From Minisyncoccota bacterium (GTDB taxonomy: Bacteria; Patescibacteriota; Minisyncoccia; Phycocordibacterales; XYD1-FULL-46-19), in NCBI GenBank assembly GCA_041665625.1, contig JBAYIK010000001.1, positions 2,091 through 66,090 on the forward strand: 64,000 bases of DNA, in the 5' to 3' direction. The notes under the pieces were generated by a model that saw nothing but the letters and a program-made list of their open reading frames with translations, did not search any database and was not told the origin of the DNA. Position numbers and translations under genes: made by a program. Shown piece after piece: positions 22,212 through 56,074 of this stretch. Within the stretch, counting starts at the first letter, position 1, and each line of letters begins with the position of its first letter.

Positions 22212-25200
22212 ATGTTTTTTTGTTGGCAAAATTTCTTTAGGAATCGGCGCTTTTTGGCTATAGTTTTTTTGCTATTTTTTTCTTTGCAATTTTTTGTTTT
22301 TTCCTCGGCTTCGGCCGCCACTGGTGTCCCTCAAATTATGAGTTATCAGGGGCGCTTGGCAAATTCGGCGGGGGACTTGGTTGGAGGGACTGGAGCGATT
22401 TATTCTTTCAAATTTTCTCTTTGGGATAACGCTACTGTCGGCTCTGGTTCTAGGGTTTGGCCAGCTACTTCTCCGACCGCTTTTACTTCAACAGTTCGCC
22501 AAGGACTTTTTAATGTGAATATTGGGGATACTGACAATGGATATCCGGATGCTCTTAACTACGATTTCAGTCAGAACAACAAAATTTATTTACAGATTGA
22601 AGTTTCTTCTGATGGTATTACTTACGAGACTCTGGGCCCTCGCCAACCCATTACCAGTGCGCCTTTTGCCCAAGTGGCTGGCTCTGTCTACGGTTCAGGT
22701 ATTTCCACTATGGGTGGTCTTGTTGTAAATGGCAACAGCACTACTACCAGTTTAGCGATTGCTGGTTTAGCTAACACCTATCTGGCTGTTAATGGCCTTG
22801 GCCAAGTCATTGCCACAACTTCCCCCGCCTTCTCTTTTTCTGAACTCGATCCCTACTACTCCGTTGCTTCTTCTTCTCTTTTGCATTATGGCACGACCTC
22901 TGACGCTCTAACCGAAGGTCTCGTTAACAAATTCTACACTCAGGCCAAAGTTTGGACTGATATTGTCGCTTCTTCCACCTTTCAAACTTTTTCTAATTAT
23001 TGGACGAAGACGGGGGATGATCTGAGTTATCTCACAGGGGATGTTTCTGTTGGGACGAGCTCTTCGGCCTCCACTTTCAATATCCAGGCCTTGGCTGGTG
23101 CTTCGGCACTTAATATTGCGTCTTCAACAGGGGCGTCAATGTTCACCGTTGCGAGTAATGGCAATGTCGGAATTGGTACGGAAAACCCAACCAATGCCCT
23201 GGTTGTTAATGGGACAGCCAGTGCCTCTCTCTTCCTTGGCCAAGTTCGGGGGACTCTATGGTTAAGTTCTGCCGCGGATATTGGATTTAACCGATTGTCA
23301 GCTGGGGTGGCAACAGTTAATGGTACGGCGGGCTCAAGCGCTTTACGTCCTCTTATCGCCTCTAACTTTTTTACAGGGACAACGACAACCTCCAGCCAGG
23401 TTGGCATACTTAACATCGCTACTACGACGGGGGACTCTTATCTGTTTGTTGGGAATACTGGTCTTGTTGGCCTCGGCACTACTACACCCGACTCTAACCT
23501 TAATGTTTTTGGCACCACTAACACCTTCTTGCGTGTCGCTTCCTCCACCAACCAAAACATTTTTGTTATTGATGGCTCTGGCGACTTGTCAGCCACGGGC
23601 AACTTGGCGATGACGGGGGCGGTCACTGGTTCTAATCTTAATGTTACAAATTGGAATACGGCCTATGGTTGGGGTGATTGGGCAACTGGTGTCTGGGCCT
23701 CTTCCACTCTCTCCACTCTATTCGCCAATGCCTCCACCGCTTTCTCTTGGGGCGACCACTCTCTTCTTGGTTATCTCACCAATGCTTTGTTTGATACACG
23801 TCTCGCCGCCACCACTTCACTCCCAAATCTCGCGACACTCGCTGGCCTCACCGATATTGGTTCCGCTTCCGCCACCACAACAATTGGCGGGAGTTCTCGT
23901 TTTATTGTTGGGGCCAATGGCAATGTGGGGATTGGGACAAGTACACCAAGCGAGGTGCTTAGCGTTGTGGGGAATTCAATTTTTGGGACGAGAAACAATA
24001 TTACTAATTTTGCCTCGAGTTTTGGCATAACGAGTTACTCCGCGATTATTGGCTCTGCTGACACCGACAAGCCGGGGCTTGTTTTGGGAGATTTTGACGG
24101 AACGAAAAATCGAAGGTCTGCTATTTATCTCGACAATTCTTATCCCGCAACTGTTTTTAGGTCTACATATAGTACCGGCGGTTCTCCTAATTGGGTTTTC
24201 TATAATGGTTCTGTTGGCATTGGCACCACCACCCCACTAGCCAAACTTGATATTGCCGGTACACTTGGCTCGACAGCGGACTTATTTAATGTCTCCTCGA
24301 CCACGGAGGCTAATGTTGTTTCTAGTTTGTTCAAAATTGCTTCGGATGGCAAAGTAACAGTTGGCGCCACCCTTAATCTTAGTGCTCTTTCTGACTCATA
24401 TCTCTCCGTCAATAGCCTTGGTCAGGTGATTGCGACTTCCACCCCACTTCTTTCTTTTGACGAAACTGATCCCTACTACACAGCCGCCTCTTCTACCCTC
24501 TTACGCTATGGAAACAGTTCCGATGTCTTAACTGAAGGTGTGATCAATAAGTTTTATACTCAGGCCAAAGTTTGGGATGATATTGTCGCTTCCACAACTT
24601 TCCAAGCCTTTGCCAATTATTGGACGAAGGTGGGGAACGATTTGAATTATTTAACAGGGAATGTTGCCGTTGGTACCACAACATTTGATGGAACGAACCC
24701 AGAAAAGTTTTTGGTTGATGCTGGTAATACTAGTTCGGTCAACGGCTTAGTTGTTCGGGGTAGTATCGATAATTATTTCCAGATGAATATAAAGAATAGC
24801 TCGGGCGGCACGAATGCTTCTACTGATATTGTGGCCACGGGTGATACTGGTAACGAAGGTACTGGTTTTATCGATATGGGTATTAATAGTTCGGGCTACA
24901 CGGGGGGTATCGTGGGCCTCGCTAATGACACTTATCTTTATGGTTCTTCGACGGGGAATATGCTTATTGGCAATGCTTCAGCTGGCAAGAATTTAATTTT
25001 CTTCACGAACGGTGCTAATGGCTATACTAACGAGAAGATGAGAATTAGCTCAAGTGGTTTTGTCGGCATTGGTAATTGGAGCCCGACACAAGCACTTGAA
25101 GTCGGATCAACCACGGCCGGGTTGAATGGAATCTTCAACGCGACTCTTGGGGCCGAGCTTACTCCTACTTTTGACGCCGGCAATTGGACAGGGACAAATG

Positions 25201-28200
25201 GTTGGTCAGCGACGGGTTCGACTTTAGAAAAAGTTACTAATGCGACAGCTGGTACCATTACTCCTTCAGGAGCAGGGGCCACCCCTGCCATTGGGACGAC
25301 TTATCAGATTACCATCACAACTTCAGCGAAGGGGGCCGCCGCTGTTACCTACACTTATGGTGGTGTTACCGGTACGACTATTGTCGTCGGAACTTTTACT
25401 GATTATATTACCGCTGTTACCGCGGGTAAGCTTATTATTACTGGGGCGATTTCCTCTACGGCCACCATTACTGGTGTTAGTATTAAAGCCTTGACCAATA
25501 ACACTGGTGATCTCACTGTTTTTGGTGATATTAAGCTTGGGAGTCGAATAACTAATCCTAACGGGACTCTTGGCTTGGAAATTTCGCCAACAGGGGCGGC
25601 TGTATTCGGGAGCACTGTGAACGCTGCTGGCCGTATAACAGGGGCTGGCCTCGCCGCCGGAGGCACCGTCACTGGTGTCACCTCATTGGCTCATAGTTTA
25701 GCTATTACGGGTACTGTCCCAACTCTATACGTCTCGACGGATGGTTATATCTTAACAGCGGCCGCTTCAACAGGTGTCACAAGCACACTTGTTCCACTTA
25801 GTATCTCTCCTCGTATTAGGCAAGTTGGTCAAGCTTGGGATATTGATAGTGCGGCGAATGTTCTCAATAATTATTGGTCCGAGGTTATCGCTTATCCTGG
25901 GACAACAACTGTTAATTCTAAACTCTCCTGGTTTTATAGCCAAGGAGCGATGGCCGCTGCGGCTGAATATCAAGCACCCGAGATTATGAACTATTATAAT
26001 GGCAGCCTTAATGTGCTTGGTTCAACTTATGGCGATGAGGTCTTAACTAATGGCGCTCTTGCAACCCCTGGTGCTGAGTGGTCTGTCTCGGCGACAGGGT
26101 TTACTCTTAATGGTAGTGCCGCTGTTTATGTCCACCATGCTTCGGGTGGCACTCTTACACAACCAAGCACTTCTTTTGATCCGCCAGTAAAAGCCAACAG
26201 GTGGTACAGATTTACTTGGACGTCATCAGCTCTTAATACAACGGCTCGTGCCTATATTGATCCAACAGGTATTTCGGCCGAAAGAGTATATTTACGCGGA
26301 ACAGTGGTAACAGCTGGTACTTATACGGTAACTTTCAAAACCAATTCCAACCCGGGCAACTTTATTATCACGGCTGATTCAAACTCTTCAGGTGATGGAT
26401 TCACTCTTGATGATTTGTCACTGGTCGAAGTTAATTCTGGGAATGTTGTGGCGAATGGTTTGTTTACTGGTGGAGGAACCGAAGGACTTAAGATTGATAA
26501 TAACGGTCTAGTCGGCATCGGCACGAGTACTCCTGATTCTGAATTAAATATTTTTGGCAACAATACGACTTTCCTGCGCGTTGCTTCCTCTACTAACCAA
26601 AACATTTTTGTCATCGACTCTAGTGGTAACGTTAGCTTGTCAGGTAATCTAACCCTCGGCAATCTCAACGGCCCCCTCCAAGCCATCAATGGCCTTGTCT
26701 CAGCGACCTCTTCGATTGGCTCTGGTTATCTCTCTGGTAACGTGATGCTAGAAGGTGAAAATATCTCTTTGTTAAATAACGATGCTAATTATCTTGCTTA
26801 CGGCACGTCATCTGACGCTCTTACCGAAGGCCTCGTCAATGAATTTTATACTCAGGCTAAAGTTTGGACAGATATTATTGCTTCTTCCACTTTCCAAACT
26901 TTTGCTAATTATTGGACAAAGACGGGGGATGATTTGGGGTATCTTGTTGGTAATGTGGGAATTGGAACTACCACCAATATGAGCAACAAGCTAACTATCG
27001 ACGGAGGAGATGGTTCTATCAGTGGATTAGAAATTCGTAATTTGGGGACAGCGACGAAGGGGATAGATCTCTCTAATTCTGGCCTCTCTGGGGCAACTGA
27101 CTACCCTATTTATATAGGAGCCTCTCAATATTGGACGGCCTCAAATGTTCTCAGGGCTTCGGTTGGATCTTTTTCAAGTGATCATTCAGCCTTAGACTAT
27201 CGTCCTTTTGGGACAAACTCGGATCTTGTCTATTGGCTTAAAAATGATGCAAATAAATTCTCTTTTGAAAATACGGCTGGCTTAGAAGTCGCGAGCATCT
27301 CCTCGGCTGGTGTTGCTTCGACGACTGGGCTGCAAGTTAATGGGAATAGTTTTTTGACTGGGACTTTGTCTATTGGGACAACTTCTGTCGACTCAACTTT
27401 TAGTTTGCAAGCTCTTGCTGGAGTCTCAGCTCTTAATATTGCTTCGTCTACTGGCGCCTCAATGCTCTATGTTTCCAATAGTGGCTATGTGGGAATTGGC
27501 AACAACGATCCTTCATATCCTCTTACTGTGACGGGGGACATTGTCGCTTTGGGAACTAATAATATAACCCTGAGTACTGTTAGCGGTTCCATTTATGCGG
27601 CTGGGGGATTGGTAAATAATGTTACAGCTAATAATTCTCGGGTGAGATCTCCTACTACTGGGGCCATAATTGATAGGAACGTTGCTGACTCTAATCCGGC
27701 CTTGACCGTCAACCAGGCCTGGAATGGTGCAGCAAGTACGGGGGATCTTCTAAGATTGCAATACGACAGCGTGAATAAGATTGTTGTCGACTATTCGGGG
27801 AATATGGGTATTGGGACAACTACTCCAACTTCTAAACTTGTGGTCTCTGGTGCTTCGACTTCTCCTCTCGCTTACTTTGCCGATGATAACAATAATAGCT
27901 TACAAATTACCAGCCAAACTTTGGGCCTAGCCCTTGAAGGACACACTACCGCTTTGGGGCCAGACATCTCGTTCGTCGGAGTTAAGGACTCTTTCGCAAT
28001 AATTAACAGCCCTTCTGCTAGTGTTTACGAAGCCCTAGGAGCTACTAATACCATCGGGATGTCCTTTTCTAATTCGGCTCTTAATGTCTCAGCTGACATT
28101 ACTTTTGAAGATGTTTTGGGACAACTTAAATTGCGTTCTGATTATATTGAACTTGATAGTGCTAATGGTGTCACCGTAACGGATCTTAATGTTAACGGCG

Positions 28201-29111
28201 CGGTCTATTCTAATAACGGGGTACTCACCAATGTTAATCCCTCATCTCGCACTTACAAGAATAATATCGTTGATACTAATCTCAATATTGATGCTTTATT
28301 AGGATTACAGATTAAATCTTTTAATTGGAATAAGTCTGGGCAAGCCGATTTTGGCCTCATCGCTGAAGAAGTTAAATCTGCTGTCCCTGAGCTTTATCTT
28401 GAGAGCAATGGGGTTAAGGGTTACCGGGCAGATCATTTACCTTTCTATTTATTGCAGATTGCCCAGAGGCAAGAAGCGGATCTTAATGAATTAAGGAGTA
28501 AGCTTGATTCTTTAACGGGCTCTAGTGTGCCGATTAGCTTAACTGAAGAAGGTCTTATTGATCCAGCGTTGTTTACTGTTTCTACTTCAAGCTTAAATAT
28601 TTCTACGACAACGGAAGAGCTTTCTACTTCTACTGCTTTCTCAATTCTCTCAGATCGTTTGCTTTCTGGATTGACGACAGTTAAGGATCTTGTCTCTGAA
28701 CGAATGGTCGCGATGGTTGGCCTCTTCGATTATGTTAAATCCAAACTCGTTGAGACTGATGTCCTCCGTGTTCAGAAGGGGATGGAGATTAAAGATTCTG
28801 CTACTGGCGAGATTTACTGCGTGCTAATTGTTAATGGTGAGTGGAAGAAGACAAAGGGCCAGTGTTCTGATACTTCTGCTATTCCCCCTCTTGTTCAACC
28901 CGATACTCCTGTTGCACCTCCTTTGATAATAGTAGAGACAGGGAGCAGTACCCCAAGCGTAGATACCAGCACTTCTACTTCCCTAGAGCTTATCTCTCCA
29001 CCTGAACCTGTCACCACTGTTGAACCCAATCTCGAACCTGCCCCTGTTCCTGAACCTAGCCCCGATCCTGCTGAGACCTTGAACGAGACGATACTTGCCC
29101 CTGAAGTTTAA
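22212..29111 (+). CDS. Giant (2299 aa) secreted fibre-like surface protein with tail-fibre-type G(I/V)GTxxP repeats, three internal ~75-aa repeats, and a C-terminal intramolecular-chaperone (peptidase S74 / endosialidase-chaperone-like) autoprocessing domain.
   Basis: Signal peptide ...FSSASA. Repeats 'NVGIGTENPTNALVVNG', 'LVGLGTTTPDSNLNVFG', 'NMGIGTTTPTSKLVVSG'. C-terminal 'NPSSRTYKNNIVDTNLNIDALLGLQIKSFNWNKSGQADFGLIAEEVKSAVPELY' matches the S74 'SDxRLKxNI...GfIAQEVeevxPElV' consensus. Pro-rich tail. Confidence 0.7.
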   Translation: MFFCWQNFFRNRRFLAIVFLLFFSLQFFVFSSASAATGVPQIMSYQGRLANSAGDLVGGTGAIYSFKFSLWDNATVGSGSRVWPATSPTAFTSTVRQGLFNVNIGDTDNGYPDALNYDFSQNNKIYLQIEVSSDGITYETLGPRQPITSAPFAQVAGSVYGSGISTMGGLVVNGNSTTTSLAIAGLANTYLAVNGLGQVIATTSPAFSFSELDPYYSVASSSLLHYGTTSDALTEGLVNKFYTQAKVWTDIVASSTFQTFSNYWTKTGDDLSYLTGDVSVGTSSSASTFNIQALAGASALNIASSTGASMFTVASNGNVGIGTENPTNALVVNGTASASLFLGQVRGTLWLSSAADIGFNRLSAGVATVNGTAGSSALRPLIASNFFTGTTTTSSQVGILNIATTTGDSYLFVGNTGLVGLGTTTPDSNLNVFGTTNTFLRVASSTNQNIFVIDGSGDLSATGNLAMTGAVTGSNLNVTNWNTAYGWGDWATGVWASSTLSTLFANASTAFSWGDHSLLGYLTNALFDTRLAATTSLPNLATLAGLTDIGSASATTTIGGSSRFIVGANGNVGIGTSTPSEVLSVVGNSIFGTRNNITNFASSFGITSYSAIIGSADTDKPGLVLGDFDGTKNRRSAIYLDNSYPATVFRSTYSTGGSPNWVFYNGSVGIGTTTPLAKLDIAGTLGSTADLFNVSSTTEANVVSSLFKIASDGKVTVGATLNLSALSDSYLSVNSLGQVIATSTPLLSFDETDPYYTAASSTLLRYGNSSDVLTEGVINKFYTQAKVWDDIVASTTFQAFANYWTKVGNDLNYLTGNVAVGTTTFDGTNPEKFLVDAGNTSSVNGLVVRGSIDNYFQMNIKNSSGGTNASTDIVATGDTGNEGTGFIDMGINSSGYTGGIVGLANDTYLYGSSTGNMLIGNASAGKNLIFFTNGANGYTNEKMRISSSGFVGIGNWSPTQALEVGSTTAGLNGIFNATLGAELTPTFDAGNWTGTNGWSATGSTLEKVTNATAGTITPSGAGATPAIGTTYQITITTSAKGAAAVTYTYGGVTGTTIVVGTFTDYITAVTAGKLIITGAISSTATITGVSIKALTNNTGDLTVFGDIKLGSRITNPNGTLGLEISPTGAAVFGSTVNAAGRITGAGLAAGGTVTGVTSLAHSLAITGTVPTLYVSTDGYILTAAASTGVTSTLVPLSISPRIRQVGQAWDIDSAANVLNNYWSEVIAYPGTTTVNSKLSWFYSQGAMAAAAEYQAPEIMNYYNGSLNVLGSTYGDEVLTNGALATPGAEWSVSATGFTLNGSAAVYVHHASGGTLTQPSTSFDPPVKANRWYRFTWTSSALNTTARAYIDPTGISAERVYLRGTVVTAGTYTVTFKTNSNPGNFIITADSNSSGDGFTLDDLSLVEVNSGNVVANGLFTGGGTEGLKIDNNGLVGIGTSTPDSELNIFGNNTTFLRVASSTNQNIFVIDSSGNVSLSGNLTLGNLNGPLQAINGLVSATSSIGSGYLSGNVMLEGENISLLNNDANYLAYGTSSDALTEGLVNEFYTQAKVWTDIIASSTFQTFANYWTKTGDDLGYLVGNVGIGTTTNMSNKLTIDGGDGSISGLEIRNLGTATKGIDLSNSGLSGATDYPIYIGASQYWTASNVLRASVGSFSSDHSALDYRPFGTNSDLVYWLKNDANKFSFENTAGLEVASISSAGVASTTGLQVNGNSFLTGTLSIGTTSVDSTFSLQALAGVSALNIASSTGASMLYVSNSGYVGIGNNDPSYPLTVTGDIVALGTNNITLSTVSGSIYAAGGLVNNVTANNSRVRSPTTGAIIDRNVADSNPALTVNQAWNGAASTGDLLRLQYDSVNKIVVDYSGNMGIGTTTPTSKLVVSGASTSPLAYFADDNNNSLQITSQTLGLALEGHTTALGPDISFVGVKDSFAIINSPSASVYEALGATNTIGMSFSNSALNVSADITFEDVLGQLKLRSDYIELDSANGVTVTDLNVNGAVYSNNGVLTNVNPSSRTYKNNIVDTNLNIDALLGLQIKSFNWNKSGQADFGLIAEEVKSAVPELYLESNGVKGYRADHLPFYLLQIAQRQEADLNELRSKLDSLTGSSVPISLTEEGLIDPALFTVSTSSLNISTTTEELSTSTAFSILSDRLLSGLTTVKDLVSERMVAMVGLFDYVKSKLVETDVLRVQKGMEIKDSATGEIYCVLIVNGEWKKTKGQCSDTSAIPPLVQPDTPVAPPLIIVETGSSTPSVDTSTSTSLELISPPEPVTTVEPNLEPAPVPEPSPDPAETLNETILAPEV

Positions 29112-29126
29112 AACATAAAAAACAAA

Positions 29127-29161
29127 CCACCGCTAGGTATTACCTAGCGGTGATTTGTTTT
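29127..29161 (+). terminator. Rho-independent terminator, possibly bidirectional with the tRNA-Trp gene.
   Basis: Stem CACCGCTAGGTA-tt-TACCTAGCGGTG followed by ATTTGTTTT. Confidence 0.8.
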
Positions 29162-29234
29162 GGCGGGCCCACGAGGACTCGAACCTCGATCGATGGTTTT
29201 GGAGACCATTGTTCTACCATTGAACTATAGGCCC
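29161..29234 (-). tRNA. tRNA-Trp (anticodon CCA), with encoded CCA end.
   Basis: Reverse complement GGGCCTATAGTTCAATGGTAGAACAATGGTCTCCAAAACCATCGATCGAGGTTCGAGTCCTCGTGGGCCCGCCA folds as a cloverleaf with anticodon loop CTCCAAA. Confidence 0.85.
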
Positions 29235-29468: not shown

Positions 29469-29657
29469 ATGTCAGACGAATTAAAAGTTAAAGCTCAAAG
29501 ATTAGGTCAATTACTAGCCAACTCTACCACTCTCGATCTAGACCAGAAGATGAGAATTCTTGGTCTACTTAAAGGCATGACAGAGGGGCAAATTGATAGC
29601 CTAATTATTTATCTAGACGAGGGTATTGGCGATTTGGAGTTAATTCTTGCCATTTAA
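29469..29657 (+). CDS. Small conserved hypothetical protein; paralog of 15665..16003.
   Basis: See 15665. Its 3' end overlaps miaA convergently by about 53 nt. Confidence 0.55.
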   Translation: MSDELKVKAQRLGQLLANSTTLDLDQKMRILGLLKGMTEGQIDSLIIYLDEGIGDLELILAI

Positions 29658-30549
29658 TCCTTTTATCTTTTTTAAACCAAGTAATTTGGCGTTTGCTGTA
29701 TTTTACTATTTCTGAATAAAGTTTCTCTATCATTTCTTTTTTTGCTAGTTTCTTCTGTAAAAAAAGAGCAATATAACGATACTCTAAACCTAATTGCTCG
29801 AGACGTTTCCATGACACACCACTTTGGTGTATTTTTTTTACTTCGGCCACCATTCCACTTTTAACTCTCTCAATCAAGCGTTTGTAAATTTTTTTATTGA
29901 GCTCTTCTTGTTCGGTTTTGACACCAATAATTTCAAAGTCATAACCGGCATTATGAAGTCGTACTTCAAGTGAGTCCGAAGTCCGACTTCGTAATGCCGG
30001 GACTTTCCCTAGTTTCTTAGCAATCTCAATTGCCCGAATCAATCGCACCGGATTTTGGCCATCAATTGTCTTAGCTCGAGCGGGGTCTAATTTTTTTAGC
30101 ATAGTAAAAAGCTCGGCCGGAGTTTTCTTCGACAATTGCTCTCTTAATTTTTTATCTGGCTCAACTTCGGGCAGAATAAGATCATCAACCACCGCCTGAA
30201 TATAGAAGCCTGTGCCACCGACAATAATCGGGGTCTTGCCACGGGCAATAATTTCTGTGATTTTTTGATCAGCGAGTTTCTTGAAATCAGAGACAGTAAA
30301 GATTTTTTTGGGACTTACCACGTCAAGCAAATGGTGGGGGATACCAGTCATCTCTTTTTTTGTAACCTTACCACTACCAATATTAAGCCCCTTATAGACT
30401 TGCCTCGAATCAGCACTAATGGTCTCTCCGCCCACCTTCTTGGCGAGTTTTATACTGAAACCGGTCTTCCCACTAGCCGTTGGCCCTACAATCACATAGA
30501 TTTTGGGCTTAAGGTCGGAGTTTTTTACTGGATTGATTTTCTCTCTCAT
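29605..30549 (-). CDS. miaA: tRNA dimethylallyltransferase.
   Basis: P-loop 'VIVGPTASGKTGFSIKLAKK', 'ISADSRQVYKGLNIGSGK' and 'GIPHHLLDV'. Contains the in-frame palindromic element at 29945-30000. Confidence 0.9.
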   Translation of the reverse strand: MREKINPVKNSDLKPKIYVIVGPTASGKTGFSIKLAKKVGGETISADSRQVYKGLNIGSGKVTKKEMTGIPHHLLDVVSPKKIFTVSDFKKLADQKITEIIARGKTPIIVGGTGFYIQAVVDDLILPEVEPDKKLREQLSKKTPAELFTMLKKLDPARAKTIDGQNPVRLIRAIEIAKKLGKVPALRSRTSDSLEVRLHNAGYDFEIIGVKTEQEELNKKIYKRLIERVKSGMVAEVKKIHQSGVSWKRLEQLGLEYRYIALFLQKKLAKKEMIEKLYSEIVKYSKRQITWFKKDKRIKWQELTPNRQYPRLDK

Positions 30550-30585: not shown

Positions 30586-30667
30586 GCCGAAGTGGCGGAA
30601 TTGGTAGACGCGCACGACTCAAAATCGTGTATCGCAAGATGTGAGAGTTCGATTCTCTCCTTCGGCA
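30586..30667 (+). tRNA. tRNA-Leu (anticodon CAA) with a long variable arm.
   Basis: GCCGAAGTGGCGGAATTGGTAGACGCGCACGACTCAAAATCGTG...GAGAGTTCGATTCTCTCCTTCGGCA. Anticodon loop CTCAAAA. Confidence 0.85.
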
Positions 30668-30672
30668 CCTAT

Positions 30673-31650
30673 ATGTCAAATAACTACGAAGATAAAATTT
30701 TCTTAATTGAAGTTGAGAAGATCAAGCCGAATCCTTATCAACCAAGGCGTGAATTTAACGAGGAACGTTTGCGGGATTTGGCTGACTCGATTAAGCAATA
30801 TGGGGTTCTCCAGCCTCTCGTTGTCACCAGGAAGGAGGTTGGCCGTGACGATGGTAGTTTCTTTACTGAATATGAAATTATCGCTGGCGAGCGACGTTGG
30901 CGTGCTTCGAAGCTGGCGGGCTTACCTCAAGTCCCGGCTATCATCCGCACGGGGGAGCAGAGTGATAAGGAGAAACTAGAACTCGCGATTATTGAGAATC
31001 TCCAACGTGAGGATCTTAATTCGGTTGATCGAGCTCAAGCCTTTTTCCGTTTGGTGAGCGACTTCGGCCTTTCTCATGGCGAAGTCGGCAAACGTGTCGG
31101 CCGTAGTCGTGAATATGTCTCTAACACTATCCGCATTCTTAATTTGCCTCAAGAAATTCTTGACGCTTTAGTGGCGGGCCAGATTGCCGAGGGTCACACC
31201 AAGCCGCTCTTGATGCTCTCTGATCATCCCGAGGAGCAAATCACGATCTTTAAGGAGGTAATGATTAAGCGCTTAACCGTGCGTGACACGGAGGCTATCG
31301 CTCGGCGCATTGCTTATGACCGGGTGCGCAAGAAGGAACATTTTGTTATGCCAGAGATTATTGAGCTAGAGGATAAATTGTCTGAGAAGTATGGCAATCG
31401 TGTTAAGGTTGAGGCCAAAGGCGAGACGGGCGGGCGCATCTTAATTGATTTTACTTCACCCGAAGAATTGCGACGCATTCTCTCGATGCTTGAACACAAT
31501 GGTCCTGCCAGTGTTATTGATATTCCTCTCTCTGGTCTGGCTCCCGAAGAAGTTGGTCAAGAAATCAATATTGCTGAGACTAAGCCAGGACAAGCAGCTG
31601 AACTTGAAGAGCCTGAAGATCTCTACTTCATTAAGAATTTTTCTCTTTAG
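30673..31650 (+). CDS. parB: Chromosome partitioning protein ParB/Spo0J.
   Basis: 'PNPYQPRREFNEERLRDLADSIKQYGVLQPLVV', 'IIAGERRWRASKLAGL' and an HTH. The listed ORF start at 30592 overlaps tRNA-Leu, so the start is taken at MSNNYEDK. Confidence 0.9.
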   Translation: MSNNYEDKIFLIEVEKIKPNPYQPRREFNEERLRDLADSIKQYGVLQPLVVTRKEVGRDDGSFFTEYEIIAGERRWRASKLAGLPQVPAIIRTGEQSDKEKLELAIIENLQREDLNSVDRAQAFFRLVSDFGLSHGEVGKRVGRSREYVSNTIRILNLPQEILDALVAGQIAEGHTKPLLMLSDHPEEQITIFKEVMIKRLTVRDTEAIARRIAYDRVRKKEHFVMPEIIELEDKLSEKYGNRVKVEAKGETGGRILIDFTSPEELRRILSMLEHNGPASVIDIPLSGLAPEEVGQEINIAETKPGQAAELEEPEDLYFIKNFSL

Positions 31651-43586: not shown

Positions 43587-44579
43587 ATGTCTAATTTTTG
43601 GGAAAAATTAAATAAACCCTTTTTCTGTTTGGCGCCGATGTATGACGTGACCGACGCCACTTTTCGTCAGATGTTTGTTAAGTATGGTCGGCCCGATGTT
43701 TTATTTACAGAATTTGTCTCAGCTGATGGCCTCGCGAGCGAACAAGGTCGCGAGAAGCTAAAACGTGAACTTTATTTTGATAAAAACGAACACCCAATTG
43801 TCGCCCAAATTTTCGGTTCTAAATCAGAGACAATTAAAGTTGCGGTAAAACTGATTAAAGAGCTTGGTTTTGATGGTGTCGATATTAATATGGGTTGCCC
43901 CGATCGGGCCGTGGAGAAACAAGGAGCCGGTTCAGCCTTAATGAAAAATCCTAAGCGGGCTCAAGAAATAATTCTAGCCGCCAAAGAAGTTGCCGGGGAT
44001 ATGCCCGTGTCAGTCAAAACTCGTATTGGTTATAACAAAATAGATACCGAGAATTGGGCGCGAATAATTCTTGAAACGAAACCTTCAGCTGTTACTTTTC
44101 ATCTAAGAACAAGAAAAGAAATGTCTAAAGAAGATGCCCGTTGGGAAGAAGCGGAGATACTGGGGCGTCTTGGTAAAGAATATAATATTCCGATTATTTG
44201 TAATGGAGATGTTAATAGCGTTGAAGAGGGAATTGAATTAGCGGAGAAATATAAGATAGATGGCATAATGATTGGCCGTGGCGCTTTTGGCAAACCGTGG
44301 ATGTTTGCTGATGAAGCTGTGCGAAGTCGCATTTCGGGCTCACTTGAAAAACGACTTCTCACCGCCGTTGAACACGCCCGCCTTTTCGAAGACCTCTACC
44401 TTCCCGGCCCCACTAATGACAGACTTTTTCATGGTCACACCAAGAATTTCTCGGTCATGCGCAAGCACTTCAAGGCTTATGTCACCGGCTTCAAGGGGGC
44501 TCTCGCCCTTCGCGCCAAATTAATGGAGACCCAGAATGCTGACGAGGTGGAAAAAATAATTAAAGATTTTCTCGCTTGA
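43587..44579 (+). CDS. dus: tRNA-dihydrouridine synthase.
   Basis: 'FCLAPMYDVTDATFRQM', 'VAQIFGS' and 'GVDINMGCP'. Confidence 0.85.
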   Translation: MSNFWEKLNKPFFCLAPMYDVTDATFRQMFVKYGRPDVLFTEFVSADGLASEQGREKLKRELYFDKNEHPIVAQIFGSKSETIKVAVKLIKELGFDGVDINMGCPDRAVEKQGAGSALMKNPKRAQEIILAAKEVAGDMPVSVKTRIGYNKIDTENWARIILETKPSAVTFHLRTRKEMSKEDARWEEAEILGRLGKEYNIPIICNGDVNSVEEGIELAEKYKIDGIMIGRGAFGKPWMFADEAVRSRISGSLEKRLLTAVEHARLFEDLYLPGPTNDRLFHGHTKNFSVMRKHFKAYVTGFKGALALRAKLMETQNADEVEKIIKDFLA

Positions 44580-54507: not shown

Positions 54508-54569
54508 GTGGGTGGAATCTTTGTCTGTCAAACCAAAACGAGCTCGAGAGAGCGAGAAGGAGACTTTGT

Positions 54570-55200
54570 CATGTTTCTTGGTACTCACTGGGTTGTCTGG
54601 ATTCTTATTCTGGCCTGCTGCCTTGTCAGCGCACGCCTCGCTGGGTTGACTTCCCAAAAATTGGATCAGTGGAAGATTCGGAAAGATCGACTCCGGCGAA
54701 TGGCTGACATGCCGGCTCTCTTCCTCTCTGGGGCCACTGTTTCGCGTGGCGAAGCGGTGAATTTTCACCGTTGGCTTGAGCAGGGGCTTAAGCTTCCGAA
54801 GGCTTGGGGAATCATCGACCGGGAGAAGTTCTCAGCCTGGCTTTTGGATTCGGGGAACCGAGCCAAGGTTACCTGTACCATTGAGGCCCTCAGGCGAGGG
54901 AAACTCGGGATGTTCACCCCCACGTTTGATGGTCTTGGTCGGGCCGTCGTTAGCCGGGTTTCTGAACTTGGCTTTACACTGGAAGACTTTGACCTGACTG
55001 TTACGGGTGTTGAGGATATGGTGAAGTCGGCCAAGGTCGCCTGGGCCAAAGAGGAAGCCAGGAAAATTGGCTGCTCACTGTCAAACCTCAGGATTCAAAA
55101 GCAGTCCCTGAAGGAGACGGTTGAGGGTTGGGGCTTTCCCCTCGCATGCGAAGAGCTTGGACTCCGTGACATTGTGAACAGTGATTTCTGGGATTTGTAA
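54570..55200 (+). CDS. Hypothetical membrane-anchored protein, GC-rich.
   Basis: AGGAG RBS before MFLGTHWVVWILILACCLV. Followed by a strong GC hairpin terminator. Confidence 0.5.
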
Positions 55201-55221: not shown

Positions 55222-55258
55222 CCCCCGGCGCGCGAACGCGCCGGGGGATTGTTTTTTC
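55222..55258 (+). terminator. Rho-independent terminator.
   Basis: CCCCGGCGCG-cgaa-CGCGCCGGGG followed by ATTGTTTTTTC. Confidence 0.8.
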
Positions 55259-55294: not shown

Positions 55295-56074
55295 ATGAAA
55301 AAAGATTTTAAAAAAGAAATTGAATGGATTAAGAAAGATAAGTATCCAGATGAGCCTAGCGAAGTCCGACTTCGGGCTCACCTGAAGTCGGACTTCGCTA
55401 GGCTGGGAAAAGGCGAACCAATTGATTATATCATTGGGTGGAAGGAATTTTTGGGTTGTAAAATTGATTTGAGTGAGAAGCCGTTAATTCCAAGGGAAGA
55501 AACGGAATTTTGGGTGGGGGAGGCAATTAAAGAAATTCCCAAGGACTCTCCTTTGGGGCCCTCTCAAGGAAAGTCCTTTGGAATTAGGGCTCTCGATATT
55601 TTTGCTGGCTCTGGTTGCATTGGCCTAGCTGTTTTGAATCATTGTCCTGAGCTGAAGATGACCTTTGCTGATAAAGAAGAAAAATGTATAAAGCAGATTA
55701 AGAAAAATTTGAAACTCAATAAACTTAGAGGGAAAGTCATTCAATCAGATCTTTTTAAAGGGCTCGGTAAATTCGACATCATTTTTGCTAATCCTCCTTA
55801 TATCCCAACCAAGAAATCTAAAGTGCAAAAGTCTGTTAAAAACTGGGAACCCAAGGAGGCTCTTTGGGCGGGGGCAGACGGCCTCTTGATTATTAAGAAA
55901 TTTTTTAAAGAAGCAAAAGGTCACCTGAATCCTAATGGTAAAATTTACCTAGAATTTGGCTATGGCCAGAAAAAAGCCATCGAAGATCTTTTAAAACAAA
56001 AGGGGTATAAGTCTTGGGAATTTAAAAAAGACCAATTTGGCCGCTTCCGAGTGGCTAAAATTATCGGTGGATAA
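55295..56074 (+). CDS. prmC: Release-factor glutamine N5-methyltransferase (HemK/PrmC).
   Basis: 'GEPIDYIIGWKEFLGCKIDL', 'LDIFAGSGCIGLAV' and 'IFANPPYIP' (NPPY). Contains the in-frame palindromic element at 55354-55403. Confidence 0.85.
   Translation: MKKDFKKEIEWIKKDKYPDEPSEVRLRAHLKSDFARLGKGEPIDYIIGWKEFLGCKIDLSEKPLIPREETEFWVGEAIKEIPKDSPLGPSQGKSFGIRALDIFAGSGCIGLAVLNHCPELKMTFADKEEKCIKQIKKNLKLNKLRGKVIQSDLFKGLGKFDIIFANPPYIPTKKSKVQKSVKNWEPKEALWAGADGLLIIKKFFKEAKGHLNPNGKIYLEFGYGQKKAIEDLLKQKGYKSWEFKKDQFGRFRVAKIIGG

Follow-up and report, generated by a model that had tools for sequence, protein, structure and literature searches.

An in-frame hairpin in prmC of a Minisyncoccota bacterium is probably a copy of a miniature REPIN-like element associated with a RAYT-like transposase

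Introduction

Repetitive extragenic palindromic (REP) elements occur as inverted doublets, known as REPINs, that are ~100 bp long and "almost exclusively extragenic," and their arrangement with REP-associated tyrosine transposases (RAYTs) has been described (bioRxiv 10.1101/2021.07.10.451892). Intragenic GTAG/CGTC REPs and REP dimers are reported from Opitutus terrae, R. conorii, and Thioalkalivibrio, as are in-frame Rickettsia palindromic elements (RPEs) from Rickettsia (PMC3733652). Template-switch mutation, in turn, is recognized by extended stems, several compensatory changes together, and inverted loops (PMC8794818). Here, we analyzed a hairpin within prmC, the gene for the release-factor glutamine methyltransferase, in 64,000 nucleotides of a Minisyncoccota bacterium (contig JBAYIK010000001.1, positions 2,091 to 66,090; hereafter, the window), which form part of a 293-kb metagenome contig. 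The hairpin is probably a copy of a miniature, non-autonomous REP doublet (REPIN-like) of Paceibacteria that is mobilized by a RAYT-like enzyme, apparently selfish, tolerated in genes, and reshaped by template switching. Intragenic REPs and RPEs are known examples of this kind of element; what is new here is the clade and size, the fact that most copies are intragenic, and the covariation of the basal stem. Our literature search found no report of REP/RAYT-type systems or REPINs in Patescibacteria, to which the present case would extend them.

Results

The prmC hairpin and its sister copies

The prmC locus comprises the following features, in window coordinates.

55295..56074, + strand: host gene prmC, encoding a release-factor glutamine methyltransferase of 259 aa that passes the PrmC equivalog cut-off
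55354..55403, + strand: full perfect hairpin, with arm 55354-55373, loop 55374-55383, and arm 55384-55403
55361..55396, + strand: conserved 36-nt core, composed of the REP-like 13-mer GAAGTCCGACTTC, the loop, and the 13-mer GAAGTCGGACTTC; codons 23-34 of PrmC
55354..55360, + strand: copy-specific 5' basal stem GCCTAGC, which pairs with 55397-55403 (GCTAGGC) and is not conserved among copies

The open reading frame (ORF) scores 207 bits against TIGR03534, for which the PrmC equivalog cut-off is 199. Within it, the arms GCCTAGCGAAGTCCGACTTC and GAAGTCGGACTTCGCTAGGC enclose the 10-nt loop GGGCTCACCT to give a perfect 20-bp inverted repeat spanning 50 nt. The initial annotation had placed a perfect inverted repeat at 55354-55403, as we also find, and had described it as 15-bp arms extended by an outer 6 bp; both segments do pair, but they constitute one unbroken 20-bp stem rather than separate parts. 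The outer CCTAGC/GCTAGG arms lie outside the conserved unit; they consist of flanking codons specific to this copy, paired with one another. The initial annotation proposed no identity or mechanism for the element. The element's position in the N-terminal region, upstream of the GEPIDYIIG motif, was likewise borne out (codons 23-34 versus motif residues 40-48), the core coinciding exactly with these codons and encoding EVRLRAHLKSDF. Each 13-nt arm core (GAAGTC-N-GACTTC) is also a palindrome on its own.

By several measures, this structure stands out from the surrounding sequence. It is the top-ranked inverted repeat of the window in a repeat search (24-nt arms, 96% complementary), and as single-stranded DNA, it folds into one single hairpin of -30.1 kcal/mol (z = -10.5 against 200 shuffles). 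By our own estimate, chance would yield a perfect 20-bp inverted repeat with a short loop ~1e-6 times per 64 kb. Allowing up to 2 mismatches, the 13-mer occurs 10 times in the window versus 1.5 expected, a count matched by none of 100 shuffles. The element-containing prmC was found again, identical, in an independent assembly (Logan SRR6484324, L002; fetched loci are cited below by L numbers).

Two further copies reside in the window.

29945..30000, - strand: sister copy in miaA, with core 29955-29990 and a copy-specific 9-bp basal stem CCGGCATTA/TAATGCCGG
29605..30549, - strand: host gene miaA (isopentenyl pyrophosphate transferase; Pfam IPPT, E=8e-66)
44319..44362, + strand: third copy, arm subtype C, in the dus gene, with core 44323-44358
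43587..44579, + strand: host gene for tRNA-dihydrouridine synthase (dus; Pfam Dus, E=1.5e-57)

That the prmC hairpin is a second copy of an in-frame palindromic element, as first proposed, is upheld by the miaA core at 29955-29990, which reads GAAGTCGGACTTC GGACTCACTT GAAGTACGACTTC on the coding strand and encodes RSRTSDSLEVRL. The dus copy at 44323-44358, retrieved by a mismatch-tolerant scan and absent from the initial annotation, is degenerate; with its flanks, it reads GTGC GAAGTCGCATTTC GGGCTCACTT GAAAAACGACTTC TCAC and encodes RSRISGSLEKRL. Loop orientation relative to the coding strand is the same in all three window copies, and the reading frame of the prmC copy differs from that of the miaA and dus copies. 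A scan of the window against Rfam returned three tRNAs only, with no family match at gathering score at any of the three copies, which rules out a known RNA family there.

A dispersed family in Vogelbacteria and Paceibacterota

The 36-nt core consensus consists of the GAAGTC-N-GACTTC 13-nt palindrome, the loop GGGCTCACYT, and the inverted 13-mer. Degenerate pattern scans retrieved 25 loci in contigs of species-representative genomes, all of them Candidatus Vogelbacteria/Paceibacterota metagenome-assembled genomes (MAGs), and 50 loci in metagenome contigs. Viral contigs yielded zero matches to the element patterns, ruling out a phage origin. Once duplicates were dropped, 62 distinct copies remained, all in Vogelbacteria/Paceibacterota contigs. 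The patterns fix 22 of the 36 core positions, and because both scans held the loop fixed, loop conservation is not evidence. Exact pattern matches on the contigs of a single assembly numbered 11 in the Vogelbacteria MAG CAIPHT01 and 9 in JBAZMZ01.

Four arm subtypes were distinguished: A (GAAGTCGGACTTC/GAAGTACGACTTC), B (GAAGTCCAACTTC/GAAGTTGGACTTC), C (GAAGTCGCATTTC/GAAAAACGACTTC), and D (GAAGTCCGACTTC/GAAGTCGGACTTC). Other loops (GCGTAGCC and AGTTACACA) are found between the same arms as well, indicating that the REP-like arms are the constant part of the element and the spacer the variable part. Separately, we observed loop variants GCGTAGCC(A) and AGTTACACA with REP-like arms at L028 1707, L023 6566, L081 1561-1593, L032, and L056, and the peptides encoded by such variants include KSDLATQSTTS and KSDLVTQSTTSS. 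Given that these further loop variants exist, the fixed-loop census undercounts the family.

Arm-swapped variants have the 5' and 3' 13-mers in each other's place, with loop orientation and the GTGC..TCAC flanks unchanged; examples are L019 3492 versus 3886, L014 7365-7457, and the dus orthologs (window 44323, L030, L073, L036, and L037). Within one gene of L014, a normal and a swapped subtype-B copy lie 21 nt apart. Inversion of the whole element, of the loop, or of the inner stem, worked through by hand, gives none of the observed swapped forms. Among other unusual arrangements, an antisense copy at L053 563-620 has a second GC-rich palindrome, TGCCCGTCCGGCAGGCAGGCC, nested between the loop and the second arm, and UvrC of L028 carries an in-frame, ~70-nt tailed single REP where L005 has the 36-nt doublet.

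Direct-repeat matches at the element boundaries equaled the null for n = 2-8, so no target-site duplication was detected, and a miniature inverted-repeat transposable element with such a duplication is ruled out. The few boundary 4-mer matches are mostly self-complementary tetramers arising from the inverted flanks.

In-frame location within unrelated housekeeping genes

Most copies lie within genes: 51 of the 62 (82%) fall in open frames that span 100 aa or more, 25 in sense and 26 in antisense orientation, and the other 11 lie outside long ORFs. The element is stop-free in four of six frames, with frame 1 containing TGA in both orientations. Genic copies occupy exactly the stop-free frames (sense frame 2, 19; antisense frame 2, 19; sense frame 0, 6; antisense frame 0, 7; frame 1, zero; P ~1e-9). 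Given that 0 of 51 are in TGA-bearing frames, we infer that the genic copies are translated, the element being read by ribosomes as a 12-residue insert; this answers indirectly the question, raised in the initial annotation, of its retention in mRNA. The same absence rules out a spliced mini-intron or other untranslated insert.

One DNA sequence read in four frames gives four different peptides, which excludes a motif maintained at the protein level. A selected peptide module is one form of a broader alternative in which the repeat is an artifact (assembly chimera or adapter contamination) or a product of chance. Nothing but the palindromic appearance speaks for that account, to which we give a negligible probability. 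The identical prmC sequence in two independent assemblies and the occurrence of the family, with its 62 copies, over many samples and MAGs rule out an assembly or adapter artifact; the nucleotide sequence is conserved across the four frames; and the observed counts were never reached by shuffles.

The host genes encode LeuRS, Pol I, EF-G, LepA, RNase R, UvrC, CysRS, ComEC, enolase, and cysteine desulfurase, in addition to Dus, MiaA, and PrmC. These are unrelated housekeeping genes with no functional theme, and the diversity of hosts across the family rules out the targeting of tRNA or translation genes that the window's own miaA, dus, and prmC copies had suggested.

The prmC site across relatives

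A recognizable copy is present in 7 of the 120 listed PrmC homologs, 5 at the site used in the window and 2 near residue 90. In JBAZMZ prmC (L024), the core sits antisense at the window's site, encodes EVQLQVSPKLDF, and is followed by intact native AQARQFKKDLERL; this is a clean 12-codon insertion and the cleanest case available. In the window's prmC, ~10 native codons directly after the element are missing, and element-encoded KSDF-A-RL takes the place of the KKDLERL of relatives. The closest PrmC homolog (P0002/L078; 73% identical and syntenic) lacks the element, L079 and L080 carry decayed copies at the site, and L081 carries the GCGTAGCC loop variant. Empty sites fix the insertion boundaries only in part, as orthologs are 45-75% identical and the gaps range from 4 to 24 aa. 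In the AlphaFold2 model of the window's PrmC (mean predicted local distance difference test score 91.5), residues 23-38 form a confident helix; as modeled, the insert forms part of the N-terminal helical region rather than a floppy loop.

Further short in-frame inserts were seen in PrmC homologs P0004, P0023, P0009, and P0018 and in L024 prmC (ACPEQGRR / ACPERSRRG and SRGQSLRGRPKDCPREAQL). These recurrent inserts resemble what other GC-rich palindromic repeat families of those genomes would encode.

Covarying flanks and loop flips

Beyond the core, the flanking sequences of individual copies pair with each other. The position adjoining the core is usually mismatched (C/T), Watson-Crick pairs occur at positions 2-8 in 54-77% of copies, where the null gives ~27%, and from position 9 onward pairing is at background level. 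All four pair types are represented at positions 5-8. The covariation score of 0.336 compares with 0.114 and was reached by 0 of 500 shuffles, and slid controls were 29-45% paired. Between orthologous copies, we counted 8 compensatory double changes, one of which is synonymous (CCG/GCC to CCA/GCT in miaA). At the prmC, dus, and miaA sites, the element occurs in opposite orientation in different lineages, i.e., with the loop flipped; because the arms are palindromic, such a flip alters only three loop-encoded residues.

The sharp end of pairing after ~8 bp, and its onset past one mismatched position, could instead reflect target choice, with insertion preferentially into the center of pre-existing short palindromes, which form hairpins in single-stranded DNA, and no pairing evolved afterwards. 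Hairpin targeting is known for other mobile elements. We nevertheless hold this explanation to be quite unlikely. Stems of 9-11 bp (the miaA copy, L013, and L050) would be very rare as pre-existing sites in the coding DNA of a ~1 Mb genome, and element-free relatives have no palindrome at the prmC site. Moreover, orthologous copies differ in flank sequence and register yet stay paired, which, together with the 8 compensatory changes, indicates that pairing was maintained after insertion.

A second alternative is a regulatory hairpin at the mRNA level, in which the transcript stem-loop is selected, e.g., for ribosome pausing between domains or RNase protection. The stem is very stable (-30 kcal/mol as DNA), all three window copies reside in genes for tRNA- or translation-factor-modifying enzymes, and the dus copy lies just past the GKPW[LM]F motif, ahead of the conserved LEH segment. 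Against this, sense and antisense orientations are equally frequent (25 versus 26), the loop is flipped between orthologs, and G-U pairs on the mRNA strand are not in excess of A-C pairs (28 versus 32); the lack of orientation and G-U bias rules out an mRNA-strand-specific structure. The 11 copies outside long ORFs, the functionally diverse hosts across the family, and the missing Rfam match also speak against a regulatory hairpin, which we judge highly unlikely.

A RAYT-like gene flanked by the same 13-mers

An ORF reached through single 13-mers in JBAZMZ (L023, 667-1419) has HUH (NHFHLIV) and tyrosine (YIHFNP) motifs. Its sole match in the PDB is E. coli TnpA-REP (4ER8, E=0.043), with the HUH and tyrosine motifs aligned. 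The RAYT-like family comprises 1176 proteins at E below 1e-10 and is widespread in Patescibacteria; nearly all listed relatives bear a precomputed PF01797 annotation. In four genomes (L023, L082, L083, and L084), an ortholog is located between rpsI and grpE, and each of these four genes has an arm 13-mer on both sides. In L084 (Ga0376277_0000094, 553 kb), the gene is flanked by inverted CGAAGTTGGACTTCG / CGAAGTCCAACTTCG, the exact subtype-B arms, and the same contig holds prmC with the element at the window's site. We infer, rather than observe, that the element is mobile.

Paralogous RAYT-like genes have different flanking palindromes, which suggests several independent REP-RAYT pairs in these genomes. 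The flanks of such paralogs include GGGGAAGCTTAGCTTCCCC and GTGCAACACCGAGTGTTGCAC (L034 8080-8110 and 8820-8850; L007 ~560-600). Single REPs with conserved tails, TTATCCMC-N14-ATCGAAGTYSRACTTCGAT and REP-AAATAAGGGTTTTT, were also recorded (L023 589-628, 1371-1410, and 1441-1465; L082 1876-1975 and 2712-2757; L020 162; L024 7625; L056 1981; L065 10860; and L028); they flank the RAYT gene and are scattered over intergenic, promoter-like positions.

Other features of the window

Between ORF 54508-55200 and prmC, a terminator-like, GC-only 11-bp hairpin with a T-run occupies 55222-55257 (CCCCCGGCGCG-CGAA-CGCGCCGGGGG ATTGTTTTTT). The 230-aa product of that ORF has no recorded Pfam hit; in L001, L002, and L078, an unannotated ORF of similar length (224-230 aa) also lies between the peptidyl-prolyl isomerase gene and prmC, and one lies upstream of prmC in L079. 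ORF 22212-29111 encodes a repetitive, Gly/Ser/Thr-rich protein of 2299 aa with a hydrophobic N-terminal segment. A 21-bp inverted repeat (29119-29161) and a minus-strand tRNA gene (29164-29234) come next. The listed ORF 30592-31650 begins within a tRNA gene (30586-30667), so its true start must be further downstream; the remainder appears ParB-like by eye.

Discussion

We propose that a single-copy RAYT-like HUH/Y1 transposase would recognize the REP hairpin in single-stranded DNA and copy the doublet elsewhere. The association of gene and repeat is observed directly, and the proposed activity draws on the biochemistry of E. coli TnpA-REP and IS200/IS605; the predicted substrate is the single-stranded GAAGTCSGACTTC hairpin. 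A 36-nt insert that is stop-free in four of six frames would only add 12 residues when placed in a tolerant part of a protein, and copies landing in the two TGA-containing frames would be purged, a step for which we observe the resulting frame distribution. With little intergenic space, the surviving copies would lie mostly inside housekeeping genes, where we find them, and would be transcribed and translated. A strong palindrome in place would then be subject, at the DNA level, to template switching within the strand or to correction templated by the hairpin, which would lengthen the stem by ~7 bp into the flanking codons and introduce the compensatory changes and loop flips seen among copies. 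Template switching would explain stem extension, loop flips, and core conservation alike.

Several observations weigh against a mobile, apparently selfish element of this kind. Between orthologous copies, the core is 94-100% identical in hosts that are only 63-76% identical. Since whole-core conservation is biased by the 22 of 36 pattern-fixed positions, we recomputed it on the 14 pattern-free positions, finding 92/98 identical versus 67% expected (P ~3e-10), in a comparison that takes in only copies intact enough for the search patterns to find. This points to a core conserved beyond what a neutral relic would be, by selection, conversion, or repeated re-insertion. The arm-swapped variants are explained neither by inversion nor by template switching as modeled. 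In some comparisons at empty sites, the gaps are 16-24 aa and the paired flanks seem to belong to the inserted DNA rather than to be converted native codons. No GTAG or CGTC tag stands beside the hairpin, the consensus flanks being GTGC ... TCAC, and GTAG is present only within one alternative loop variant, GCGTAGCC. As for the transposase, the L023 ORF matches Y1_Tnp at E=2e-4 and 21.9 bits and REP_Tyr_transpos at E=2e-10 and 40.6 bits, below the curated cut-offs of 23 and 80, respectively. Neither RAYT nor rpsI or grpE occurs in the 64-kb window or the 20-kb L001, so the RAYT link rests on related genomes and not on the window's own. No presence/absence polymorphism was found among the fetched loci, which held no near-identical genome pair.

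Three results (core conservation of ~94-97% where the host gene is ~67% identical, compensatory changes that include a synonymous one, and the fixed RAYT site) also fit a different view, in which the hairpins, together with the RAYT, are kept as functional DNA structures within the coding parts of essential genes in ultra-small bacteria of the Candidate Phyla Radiation (CPR), a prospect that we regard as unlikely. If true, coding and structural-DNA information would overlap and be maintained by a domesticated HUH enzyme. Stated as host selection on a nucleic-acid element, where hairpins or 13-bp palindromes serve the cell and the RAYT is a domesticated partner, this view seems rather improbable to us; one variant would have the palindromes bound by a dimeric DNA-binding protein or by a nucleoid factor, or serving as DNA structural punctuation, as proposed for E. 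coli bacterial interspersed mosaic elements (BIMEs). The basal stem is retained via compensatory changes at synonymous sites as well, single 13-mers also lie in intergenic, promoter-like regions, and the RAYT occupies its syntenic site in all four genomes. However, decayed copies occupy the prmC site in other lineages (L079 and L080), and a recognizable copy is present in only 7 of the 120 listed homologs, 5 of them at this site; host genes are unrelated and insertion sites arbitrary; only pairs in which both copies are detectable enter the conservation measure; and hairpin-templated correction can mimic compensatory evolution without selection (PMC8794818).

A REPIN-like element mobilized by a RAYT-like enzyme remains our preferred reading, and it carries several implications. 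Where intergenic space is nearly nil, such repeats can reside mainly in essential genes as 12-codon, stop-free units, a convergent parallel to the Rickettsia RPEs, here with a candidate transposase. Orthologous copies provide a natural experiment in which a strong palindrome reshapes adjacent coding sequence. On the practical side, alignments of CPR marker proteins show exaggerated divergence and indels because of these inserts, and short-read assemblies are probably broken by them, given that many contigs with a RAYT are just 1-2 kb long.

Comparison with known systems

Template-switch (quasipalindrome) mutagenesis (Ripley; Lovett; Monttinen and Loytynoja, PMC8794818) predicts signatures that are all present at these loci. 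It is a mutational process rather than an element family, accounting for the flanks and loop flips but not for the origin and spread of the core, and the arm-swapped forms are not obviously among its products. With E. coli BIMEs, the element shares alternating inverted REP variants and short conserved linkers, to which the arm-swapped forms and loop variants may be compared; BIMEs differ in lying outside genes, frequently in clusters, and in being bound by gyrase, IHF, and Pol I.

RPEs (Ogata et al. 2000) and intragenic REPs are palindromic repeats that, as here, lie in frame in genes whose proteins stay functional, often genes of DNA replication/repair and translation, and REP dimers likewise add a block of residues; both are read as selfish DNA tolerated in permissive segments. 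The added block is exactly 12 aa here, versus 100-150 bp for RPE-1 and 20-30 aa for REP dimers. Size and clade set the element apart from RPEs: it measures 36 nt (44-50 nt with the stem), and every hit falls in Paceibacterota/Vogelbacteria. Intragenic copies are a minority in the species with RPEs or intragenic REPs and the majority here, and no cognate transposase has been identified for RPEs.

Against REPINs and the REP-RAYT system (Bertels and Rainey; Nunvar; Ton-Hoang), the differences lie in the small size (36 nt) and the 82% intragenic, in-frame location, as opposed to extragenic REPINs; the lack of a GTAG or CGTC tag; the patescibacterial host clade; a RAYT-like protein of ~225 aa that scores below curated family cut-offs; and a basal stem made of copy-specific flanking codons. 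The likenesses concern architecture and genomic setting. Two inverted REPs of ~13-14 bp, here 13 nt, surround a spacer and form a hairpin (13 + 10 + 13 nt); the REPs are conserved and the spacer variable; many near-identical copies occur per genome, in several subfamilies, with no target-site duplication. In related genomes, this REP also borders a putative Y1/HUH transposase gene, in inverted orientation in L084, the RAYT-like gene resides at a fixed syntenic site, and paralogous genes have palindromes of their own.

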